64,000 nucleotides of DNA from contig DASUHT010000019.1 in the NCBI GenBank assembly GCA_036273335.1, positions 3,577-67,576 on the forward strand, in the 5' to 3' direction. The notes under the pieces were generated by a model, which searched no databases, was not told the DNA's origin, and saw only the letters and a list, made by a program, of their open reading frames with translations. Both the position numbers and the translations under genes were made by a program. Within the stretch, counting starts at the first letter, position 1. The number at the start of each line of letters is the position of its first letter. The stretch is from Gaiellales bacterium (GTDB lineage: Bacteria > Actinomycetota > Thermoleophilia > Gaiellales > JAICJC01). Positions 60,661 through 62,169 of the stretch are shown in pieces.

Positions 60661-60733
60661 AGGGGTGTAGCTCAGTTGGTAGAGCGGCGGTCTCCAAAAC
60701 CGTAGGTCGCGGGTTCGAGCCCTGCCACCCCTG
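60661..60733 (+). tRNA. trnW: tRNA-Trp (anticodon CCA)
   Basis: Hand-folded cloverleaf. Acceptor AGGGGTG/CACCCCT, D arm GCTC-AGTTGGTA-GAGC, anticodon stem GCGGT/ACCGT with loop CTCCAAA, T arm GCGGG-TTCGAGC-CCTGC, discriminator G. The 3' CCA is not encoded. Confidence 0.93.
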
Positions 60734-60749
60734 TCGCGTAACCAAGCCG
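60688..60749. repeat. Direct repeat DR1 (att-like): tRNA-Trp anticodon stem to 16 nt past the 3' end
   Basis: 62 nt matching 61908..61969 at 60/62 positions, by own alignment. Confidence 0.85.
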
Positions 60750-60830
60750 TTTCCCGCGTAACCACGCCACACACAGCCTCACCGGCCGAATCCAGTGGCG
60801 TCCACTGGTGTACATAGCTGGGGTGTGTCT

Positions 60831-60853
60831 GTGGCCAGCACTGTGGCCAGCAC
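60831..60853. repeat. Tandem 12-mer repeat GTGGCCAGCA-CTGTGGCCAGCA-C, copy A
   Basis: 23/23 identical to 61851..61873. Lies 81 nt inside DR1. Confidence 0.8.
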
Positions 60854-60937
60854 GCGGCCGGTAGCTACCGGGGCACTCTGGCGGCGACGCATCCCGACAC
60901 ATGATCACCTGCGGCACCACCGATGTAACCTGTCGGA

Positions 60938-61648
60938 ATGCCCGAAGGACTCTCTGGACCGGAGGTCGGAAGGGAGATCTCGGAACACGCCAAGCACGCC
61001 GCGGAGCAGCGTGCCGCCGACTCGCTGGATCATCGCAAGGCTGAGTGGATCTCGATCAGCGAAGCGATTCTGTTGTCGGTGGTGGCGATCATCGCCGCCT
61101 ACTCCGGCTACTCGGCCGCCCAATGGAACACCCAGTCTTCAGTGTCGCTCGCAGCGGCGAGCGCCGCCCGCACGAAGGCCAACCGGGCAGATCTGGAGTC
61201 CCTAGCCCAGCGGAACTTCGACTCGTCGACGTTCAACACTTGGTTCACCGCCTACGTCGCCAAAGATGCCCGCGGCATGGCGCTCGCCAAGAAGCGCTTC
61301 TCCCCGGCGTTTCGGATCGCCTTCGACGCGTGGTGGGCGACCGACCCGACCACCAATCCCAAGTCGCCACCGGGCCCCACCTACATGCCCCAATACAAGC
61401 AGCCGCAACTAGCGGCCGCCCGAGCACTGGACACAGTCGCCGACGCCCATTTCGCGGCCGGTGCCGCCGACGGCGCGCACTCCGACAAGTACATCCGCGT
61501 CACGGTCTACCTGGCGACGGTGCTTTTCATGATCGGCATCAGCGCACACTTCCCGCTGCTAGGAGCGCGCTACGGCTTGGTGACGATCGGCAGTCTGCTC
61601 GTCATCTTCTCCGTGATTCAACTCCTGCAACTCCCACGCCCGCCCTAA
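60938..61648 (+). CDS. Hypothetical membrane protein (DUF4337-like architecture)
   Basis: ORF 60938..61648, 236 aa. Polar N-terminus, then a TM helix (ISISEAILLSVVAIIAAYSGY), a long soluble middle, and two C-terminal TM helices. TAACCT at 60926-60931 lies 6 nt before the ATG. The family call rests on layout only. Confidence 0.6.
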   Translation: MPEGLSGPEVGREISEHAKHAAEQRAADSLDHRKAEWISISEAILLSVVAIIAAYSGYSAAQWNTQSSVSLAAASAARTKANRADLESLAQRNFDSSTFNTWFTAYVAKDARGMALAKKRFSPAFRIAFDAWWATDPTTNPKSPPGPTYMPQYKQPQLAAARALDTVADAHFAAGAADGAHSDKYIRVTVYLATVLFMIGISAHFPLLGARYGLVTIGSLLVIFSVIQLLQLPRPP

Positions 61649-61850
61649 CCCGTGGAATGCCGCACCGCACGAACACGGAAGTCGACCTCCATCAGATGGT
61701 CCCCGCCCAGATCAGAGTCGTCGTAGGTGCCCATGACCACGATGTAGAGCTGCGGCTGTGTCCACGGAAGCTCGACGGGACAGAGGGGTGGCGCCAGACA
61801 GTTCCCGTCATCGCTCCCCAGACCTGACTACCGCCCGGCGATTCGCCGCC

Positions 61851-61873
61851 GTGGCCAGCACTGTGGCCAGCAC
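61851..61873. repeat. Tandem 12-mer repeat, copy B
   Basis: Identical 23-mer in the same orientation, 34 nt inside DR2. Confidence 0.8.
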
Positions 61874-61907
61874 CCACCGCTAGACGGCTACTGGAGCCGA
61901 TTCGTAC

Positions 61908-61969
61908 CGGTCTCCAAAACCGTAGGTCGCGGGTTCGAGCCCTGCCATCCCTGTCGCGTAACCGAGCCG
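61908..61969. repeat. Direct repeat DR2: displaced 3' fragment of tRNA-Trp (non-functional)
   Basis: CGGTCTCCAAAACCGTAGGTCGCGGGTTCGAGCCCTGCCATCCCTGTCGCGTAACCGAGCCG. It lacks the 5' half of the tRNA. Relative to the intact gene there is a C-to-T change in the acceptor arm and an A-to-G change 12 nt downstream of the tRNA end. Confidence 0.85.
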
Positions 61970-62169
61970 AATGCCGCGACTCGGCTGGCCGATTGTCGAG
62001 CTAGGTCTACTCGAGGGCTAGGCGGCCACCCCGGAGCATGCGTCGACTCCTGCTCGGCGACATGGCTGTTCTGCGGCGCGTGGCGCGGCGGTTTGGCTGC
62101 GCGGATTCATCGGTTGTTCAGGTGACCGGCCTAGTGTCAGGGAACCGCTACCCAATCCCAGGGGGTTCC

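Follow-up and report, generated by a model that had tools for sequence, protein, structure and literature searches.

Integrative elements of the pSAM2 and SLP1 type use attachment (att) sites that run from the anticodon region of a tRNA gene through its 3' end, and an intact tRNA is rebuilt at one of the two junctions. They are 9-17 kb long, target tRNA genes for Pro and Tyr, and encode int, xis, replication, and transfer genes, with a tyrosine integrase that acts together with arm-type sites in attP. The attP sites of lambda and L5 consist of a core flanked by arm-type sites that are bound by the N-terminal domain of the integrase; tyrosine integrases of this heterobivalent kind bind both the core site and the arm-type sites, and at tRNA genes the crossover usually falls in the anticodon loop. 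Smaller, dependent units are also described. Cis-mobilizable elements (CIMEs) retain attL and attR, lack genes for integration and transfer, have decayed from an autonomous element, and can be mobilised by a related element (PMC5704250). An actinomycete precedent is TR1 of Streptomyces scabiei, a unit with att sites at both ends that is mobilised by the adjacent integrative and conjugative element (ICE) TR2 (PMC8369830). Here we describe an insert of about 1.2 kb, bounded by duplicated tRNA-Trp sequence, in a 64,000-nucleotide (nt) stretch of contig DASUHT010000019.1 from a Gaiellales bacterium (the window). The insert is probably a decayed, miniaturised, CIME-like derivative of a tRNA-Trp-specific integrative element in this Gaiellales-like actinomycete. 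To our knowledge, no integrative elements have been characterised in this uncultured soil Gaiellales-type lineage.

The only tRNA that ARAGORN called in the window is tRNA-Trp(CCA), at 60660-60735, which follows a conserved run of genes, lepB-rnhB-yraN-comM-dprA. An earlier note, made from the DNA letters, had reported that the 3' part of this gene (60688-60749) recurs at 61908-61969 with 60 of 62 nt identical and without a tRNA 5' half in the second copy; a repeat search, ARAGORN, and Rfam all bear this out. The repeat search extended the pair to 71 nt at 93% identity (direct repeats DR1, 60688-60758, and DR2, 61908-61978), in line with the weaker similarity noted before over about 9 further nt, to 60758. 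Identity begins at C28 in the anticodon stem and runs to 60749, 16 nt beyond the tRNA end, and the first 40 nt of both cores, anticodon loop included, are identical. Of the two mismatches reported within the first 62 nt, the C-to-T change in the acceptor arm stands as described (C 60728, T 61948; acceptor-stem position 68, where T gives a G-U pair in the would-be stem), while the A-to-G change (A 60744, G 61964) lies at the 11th nt after the tRNA end and not the 12th. Scored as a tRNA, the DR2 region reached 19.5 bits in Rfam, a partial match under the gathering score of 29, and ARAGORN called no tRNA there.

The interval between DR1 and DR2 is exactly 1158 bp (60750-61907). Apart from one unrelated 35-nt hairpin repeat, this pair accounts for every repeated 31-mer in the 64-kb window, and because almost no other repeated 31-mers are present, a chance origin of the pair is excluded. 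In an independent Logan assembly (run SRR25158402) the insert is also contiguous: one unitig, L001, matches 60714-61937 at 100% identity, and a Logan contig, L002, terminates within tRNA-Trp. The locus thus carries a tRNA-derived direct repeat in which one junction has the complete tRNA and the other a copy that lacks the 5' half, as expected of an integrated tRNA element.

Each end of the insert carries an arm with a perfect copy of the same 23-bp double 11-mer, GTGGCCAGCAC-T-GTGGCCAGCAC, in direct orientation. The left copy begins 82 nt past DR1 and the right copy ends 34-35 nt ahead of DR2, and the exact 11-mer GTGGCCAGCAC occurs four times in the 64 kb, always within the insert. The 23-mer copies are 1020 nt apart, compared to 1220 nt for the direct repeats, and the order is DR-repeat...repeat-DR; with this order and these differing spacings, a tandem duplication cannot be the origin of the arrangement. 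When the insert is permuted, the repeats flank the core on both sides, a layout that would fit an attP with arm-type sites opened at its core. A promoter and terminator scan and folding of the arms gave nothing beyond shuffled controls, and a small RNA in the arm was considered and rejected, Rfam giving no match. A shorter direct repeat, CGCGTAACCA(A/C/G)GCC (family D3), was also observed at 60735-60748, 60755-60768, and 61955-61968. Two of its copies fall in the DR1 tail and left arm, of which the first, matching CGCGTAACCA(A/C)GCC at 60735-60748, is in the DR1 tail just outside the arm, and the third falls in the DR2 tail.

To place the insert in context, we compared the dprA-tRNA-Trp locus across relatives. 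Close relatives were drawn from a protein database and a metagenome pattern scan, and distant ones from a scan of genome contigs with DprA (GTDB), in which the nearest species representative was 61% identical. The tRNA-Trp sequence of the window is identical in the relatives L092-L102, and in every close relative similarity to the window collapses within a few nt of the tRNA 3' end. Between L092 and L094, mutual synteny returns 3.2-3.7 kb downstream, at a Polyketide_cyc2-acetyltransferase-MarR block. The intervening DNA (L092, 5509-8756; L094, 9563-13270) and the window from 60734 to at least 64000 hold three unrelated gene sets of 3-4 kb with no integrase seen: L092 has RibD_C and a hydrolase, L094 has a TIG/PQQ protein and Flp, and the window has a secreted protein, a YccF protein, and a dirigent-like protein. 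Because similarity collapses at the tRNA and synteny resumes only 3.2-3.7 kb further on, the DNA behind dprA-tRNA-Trp is a hypervariable hotspot. Six distant relatives (L012-L015, L017, and L019) keep rnhB-yraN-comM-dprA, with tRNA-Trp adjacent or within ~3.5 kb, and contain neither homologues of the downstream genes of the window nor an att duplication nor an empty site.

Part of this variable DNA is shared in layout. Over ~125 nt after the tRNA, the left arm on the DR1 side of the window is homologous to the corresponding DNA of L099/L095, L094, L097, and L096, at ~60-65% identity and with alignment z-scores of 3.7-7, compared to 0.3 for the control, L092. A box with the consensus TCCAsyGkCGTCC stands at a fixed offset of +58 nt in L094, L095, L096, L097, and L099. 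Approximately 25-40 nt past the box are tandem 11-12-mers whose sequence is specific to each locus: GTGGCCAGCAC twice in the window, GTGGTCATCCC/GCGGTCATCAC in L099, and ACTGGCGCGCA twice in L097. Such repeats were not discernible in the L094 left arm and are degenerate in L096. Between genomes that are 97% identical in the adjoining DNA, the drop to 65% identity with the layout kept, together with the co-varying repeats, indicates that the arm-bearing loci are different members of one element family, unlike orthologous intergenic DNA.

One of these loci is the contig L097 (Ga0070731_10099646). At ~240-460 in the orientation used here, similarity to tRNA-Trp starts from G30 and the 5' half is missing. 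Tandem 12-mers upstream, GACTGGCCCTCA and GACTGGCGGTCA, end 37 nt before the core, where the corresponding gap in the window is 34 nt, and downstream of the core stands ACTGGCGCGCA-T-ACTGGCGCGCA, whose 11-mers are related to the upstream 12-mers. L097 has a P-O-P' (attP-like) junction of a sister element, mirroring the permuted insert of the window. In L100 (Ga0070711_100122322), an arm of the L095/L099 type has a ~100-nt deletion in which the box and repeats are lost, an example of arm decay. For L095, L096, and L097, the open reading frames (ORFs) adjoining the arms had no Pfam match, and an HNH nuclease suspected in L095 was not confirmed.

Separately, a 5'-less tRNA-Trp 3' part was observed at 2477-2520 of L098 (JGI10216J12902_101536894), an unrelated contig of lower GC content; it probably represents an att site belonging to some other element, from a different phylum.

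As the earlier note had stated, the 1158 bp between the repeats hold a single gene and no recombinase, in our case by ORF, Pfam, NCBIfam, PHROG, and integrase searches. The one convincing gene is at 60938-61648, with codon-position GC of 0.61/0.51/0.82; apart from this gene, the only ORF in the insert with a coding signal is a 60-codon frame, and none resembles a recombinase. The proposed likeness of the gene product to DUF4337 (PF14235) was not upheld: no Pfam family matched even at E<=10, nor did any NCBIfam family, and the best PHROG match (E = 0.09) was not convincing. The protein belongs to a family with 2384 homologues, mostly from soil metagenomes and Gaiellales metagenome-assembled genomes (MAGs). 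Its closest homologues, in L003, L004, and L005, share 94% nucleotide identity that is confined to 60879-61645, with unrelated flanks. In these three and in the longer MAG contigs L006-L011, the homologue has ordinary chromosomal surroundings and no tRNA, and no repeats flank it in L003. The GC content of the cargo gene is 0.65 and that of the L003 copy is 0.67, compared to 0.72-0.76 in the window core. With 94% identity in an unrelated context and homology that stops at the gene edges, the cargo gene is foreign to the tRNA-Trp site. It is intact and, by comparison with L003 (dN/dS ~0.33, dS ~0.10), under purifying selection.

The 60-codon frame (61648-61827) had no match in a word-indexed search, in Pfam, or in PHROGs. 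An exhaustive search found it weakly similar to a ~50-amino-acid CPxxLPxT...GTYxD repeat that is present in multiple copies in large cadherin/Ig-domain surface proteins, and the frame may be the 3' stump of a truncated gene abutting the right arm. Among the contigs with a cargo homologue, L011 (ERZ25039522 contig_22602) differs at ~10700-20700 from the otherwise collinear L008-L010, carrying a block of small ORFs, including SSB, in place of the genes 3' of its 234-amino-acid homologue; this block is likely an integrated element.

The sequences at the two junctions suggest which side came from the element. The tRNAs of all relatives have C at position 68, where DR2 has T (61948). The DR2 tail, GAGCCGAATGCCGC, has a 'GAAT' loop, as do the flanks of the distant relatives L013, L017, and L019, and the DR1 tail, AAGCCGTTTCCCGC, groups with the arm-bearing loci. 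The box is absent from the flank to the right of DR2. This pattern fits a DR1 3' part and tail contributed by the element, with DR2 and its flank as displaced host sequence, free to mutate. GC content falls from ~0.76 to ~0.65 at the tRNA. Together with the 23-mers in both arms, the homologous arms in relatives, and L097, the GC drop supports the earlier claim of an att duplication.

We propose that the 1158 bp descend from an element whose attP would have carried a mimic of tRNA-Trp that began in the anticodon stem and extended ~16-25 nt beyond the 3' end. Recombination with the chromosomal tRNA by a heterobivalent (lambda-Int-type) tyrosine integrase would have rebuilt an intact tRNA at attL (DR1) and moved the former 3' half of the gene, with its native flank, to attR (DR2). 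The interior, including int, would later have been lost, so that only the arms, the intact cargo gene, and perhaps the stump of a gene remained. In this scheme the unoccupied attB junction would read ...GAGCCCTGCCACCCCTGTCGCGTAACCGAGCCGAATGCCGCG and the attP circle would read ...GGAGCCGATTCGTACCGGTCTCCAAAACC...CCCTGTCGCGTAACCAAGCCGTTTCCCGCG. The order of events is inferred, and the unit could be excised in trans by a cognate integrase encoded elsewhere in the genome. With respect to the definition of a CIME, the insert keeps attL and attR and has no integration or transfer genes; as for decay from an autonomous element, a possible truncated ORF adjoins the right arm, and the parent element was not found in our searches. 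The coordinates of the features are collected in Table 1.

Table 1. Features at and beyond the tRNA-Trp insert of the window, labelled according to the proposed integration, and close relatives ranked by identity
Feature	Position	Strand	Remarks
tRNA-Trp, intact, anticodon CCA at 60694-60696	60661-60733	+	Rfam RF00005, 69.9 bits; directly 3' of dprA
DR1, attL identity segment	60688-60758	+	Repeat search, family D1
Left (P'-type) arm	60750-60878	+	Box, tandem 11-mers, and second copy of CGCGTAACCA(A/C)GCC (60755-60768)
Conserved box TCCAGTGGCGTCC	60791-60803	+	Within hairpin CCAGTGG-CGT-CCACTGG; offset +58 nt
Candidate arm-type recombinase-binding sites, left copy, GTGGCCAGCAC-T-GTGGCCAGCAC	60831-60853	+	Perfect 23-bp repeat D5
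Cargo block, 59 nt upstream plus coding sequence 60938-61648	60879-61648	+	236-amino-acid predicted membrane protein
60-codon open frame, convergent with cargo gene	61648-61827	-	Codon-position GC 0.72/0.45/0.73
Right (P-type) arm	61828-61907	+	Tandem 11-mers at 61851-61873
DR2, attR identity segment	61908-61978	+	Repeat search; tRNA-Trp 3' part and tail, without 5' half
Right flank, outside the insert	61979-64000	.	Low GC (0.66), variable; without arm box
Secreted 263-amino-acid protein	62170-62961	+	Right flank
YccF-domain protein	63295-63510	-	Right flank
Dirigent/AOC-like barrel protein	63637-63993	-	Right flank
L099			97.4% DNA identity to window upstream of tRNA
L092			94.2% DNA identity to window upstream of tRNA
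L101			87.8% DNA identity to window upstream of tRNA
L093			87.7% DNA identity to window upstream of tRNA
L094			86.6% DNA identity to window upstream of tRNA

The recombinase was most likely a heterobivalent tyrosine integrase, because a long tRNA-derived identity segment and arm repeats occur together, as is known from lambda, L5, and pSAM2-type elements. Since no integrase was found here or in the related loci, its type is assigned by analogy only. The search set comprised 7445 ORFs of at least 120 amino acids from the window and all loci.

Several results weigh against the decayed-element interpretation. Jackhmmer and phmmer searches seeded with the integrases of L5 and Psul1 gave no match in the window or in any locus, with sensitivity limited by the use of two seeds, and the Pfam annotations of L092 and L094 contain no integrase (PF00589-type). 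No full-length parent element was found in IMG/VR or JGI metagenomes. The right arm had no homologue detectable by blastn and tblastx in all fetched loci and the rest of the window. On the empty site proposed as a check in the earlier note, no relative joins the tRNA directly to the sequence after 61969, and those at 86-97% identity all differ right past the tRNA. Finally, left-arm features follow intact tRNAs in several relatives and could in principle be a conserved host feature, which we disfavour because of the abrupt drop from 97% to ~65% identity and because of L097.

Searches for further copies were similarly unproductive. Queries of IMG/VR with the att tail, with the 23-mer, and with the 3' end of the tRNA all returned 0 matches, as did the att-tail pattern TGCCAYCCCTGTCGCGTAACC in JGI metagenomes. 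Among phage genomes, a blastn query made up of DR1 and the left arm matched phage tRNA-Trp genes only. Exact-sequence look-ups of the cargo protein, of DprA, and of the downstream protein with either of two starts recovered short Logan unitigs of one run only.

Three other explanations were weighed. The first is tandem accretion, in which DR2 would be an internal att site and a second, larger element would lie to the right, with its integrase and far att site beyond the end of the window. GC content stays at ~0.66 from DR2 to 64000, against ~0.72-0.76 in the core; in no relative does a homologue of the right-flank genes lie within 10 kb of dprA; and tandems of a CIME plus an element are the common fate of such sites (PMC5704250). 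However, the flank to the right of DR2 lacks the P' arm box and tandem repeats of the family, the DR2 tail resembles the flanks of distant relatives as described above, and 61979-64000 contains no mobile-element gene; the window stops before any third att copy could show. We regard tandem accretion as rather unlikely; it is compatible with a 1.2-kb unit that is itself a decayed derivative.

The second explanation is that the insert is an active, non-autonomous mini-cassette, one of a family of units bounded by att sites and arms and lacking an integrase, which a resident or visiting integrase would excise and insert at tRNA-Trp in trans, and that such movement generates the hypervariable region. 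Consistent with this, identical 23-mers are kept in both arms and the conserved box in the left arm, the cores are identical over their first 40 nt including the anticodon loop, and the cargo gene is intact with a dN/dS of ~0.33. In L092 and L094, too, the variable stretch of 3-4 kb that follows tRNA-Trp lacks an integrase. Mobility would also be consistent with the k=31 unitig L001, which begins at 60714, 16 nt later than the 60698 predicted from the window. From its start it follows that the sample contains a further sequence, one that agrees with the window over 60713-60743 (with C at 60728, the tRNA end, and TCGCGTAACC) and departs from it at 60744. An intact tRNA with a DR2-type tail, i.e., an unoccupied attB, would fit this third sequence. 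This hint is indirect, though, and a co-occurring strain without the insert explains the branch equally well. Against mobility, the unit is present as a single copy in all collections searched, the closest copies of the gene are in non-att contexts, and no second mini-element with these arms was found. DR2 also carries two substitutions, including one in the acceptor stem, and L100 shows that arms simply decay. We therefore consider an active mini-cassette unlikely and favour a relic over a mobilisable unit.

A broader version of this idea is that tRNA-Trp in this Gaiellales clade serves as a docking site for tiny integrase-less units of one to a few genes, all retaining both recombination arms and shuffled by an integrase encoded elsewhere. 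If true, such units would be to a tRNA gene what gene cassettes are to an integron, and they would account for the differing integrase-free content in close relatives, but we hold it to be very doubtful. An integron-type cassette in the strict sense was rejected, as the att sites are tRNA-derived direct repeats and are not attC-like.

The third explanation, a local segmental duplication or assembly chimera that includes the tRNA 3' half without any integration, is extremely improbable: the apparent community sample, with several strains sharing the same tRNA and unitig breaks at 60690 and 60714, would allow for it, but homology between DR1 and DR2 stops at 71 nt in the extended-homology check that had been suggested for a segmental tandem duplication, the 23-mers are not collinear with the direct repeats and stand in inverted order relative to them (the geometry on which tandem duplication was rejected), the independent k=31 assembly spans the whole insert, from the DR1-specific C to the unique approach to DR2, and the same arm architecture is found in relatives.

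One further repeat in the window lies far from the insert. A perfect 35-nt repeat, TGGAACAAAGGGGCCAGGCCCCCTTGTTCCACGAC, at 5210-5244 and 30782-30816, forms a GC-rich palindromic hairpin, with both copies apparently intergenic, and may belong to the REP-like or terminator-type repeats.

Taken as a decayed derivative of an integrative element, the insert is a textbook-type remnant, fairly ordinary in itself, and leaves the general view of such elements unchanged. What the comparison adds is a documented integration hotspot at dprA-tRNA-Trp in a Gaiellales-type lineage and an element family with a recognisable arm architecture. It also supplies candidate recombinase-binding sites, namely the box at +58 nt and the element-specific tandem 11-mers, and a natural minimal 1.2-kb substrate with both arms that could serve in the search for the cognate integrase and in tests of it. 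Should the unit prove mobile in trans, few att-bounded mobilisable units known would be as small.

Compared to described systems, the arms resemble the attP sites of lambda and L5 in having short direct repeats on both sides of the core, tens of nt away, that co-vary within an element and differ between elements. Unlike in those phages, the candidate site sequences and their spacing are particular to the tRNA-Trp element family. The Paracoccus phage vB_PsuS_Psul1 offers a likeness in target, with an annotated att site in the 3' part of tRNA-Trp(CCA) and a tyrosine integrase gene adjoining it; however, the two are alike in the tRNA part only (85% over 46 nt), Psul1 is a complete alphaproteobacterial phage, and jackhmmer/phmmer detected no homologue of its integrase in the window or loci. 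The att arrangement is also like that of pSAM2 and SLP1, whose int, xis, replication, and transfer genes are all absent from the insert. The closest likeness is to CIMEs, such as those related to ICESt1 and ICESt3 of Streptococcus thermophilus, which are likewise att-flanked, integrase-less units. Relative to TR1, which is 20 kb, the insert is far smaller, at 1.16 kb with one gene. It differs from both CIMEs and TR1 in that no partner ICE or integrative and mobilizable element is visible in the window, in its host, an uncultured Gaiellales-type lineage, and in its location at the 3' end of tRNA-Trp rather than at fda or aviX1.

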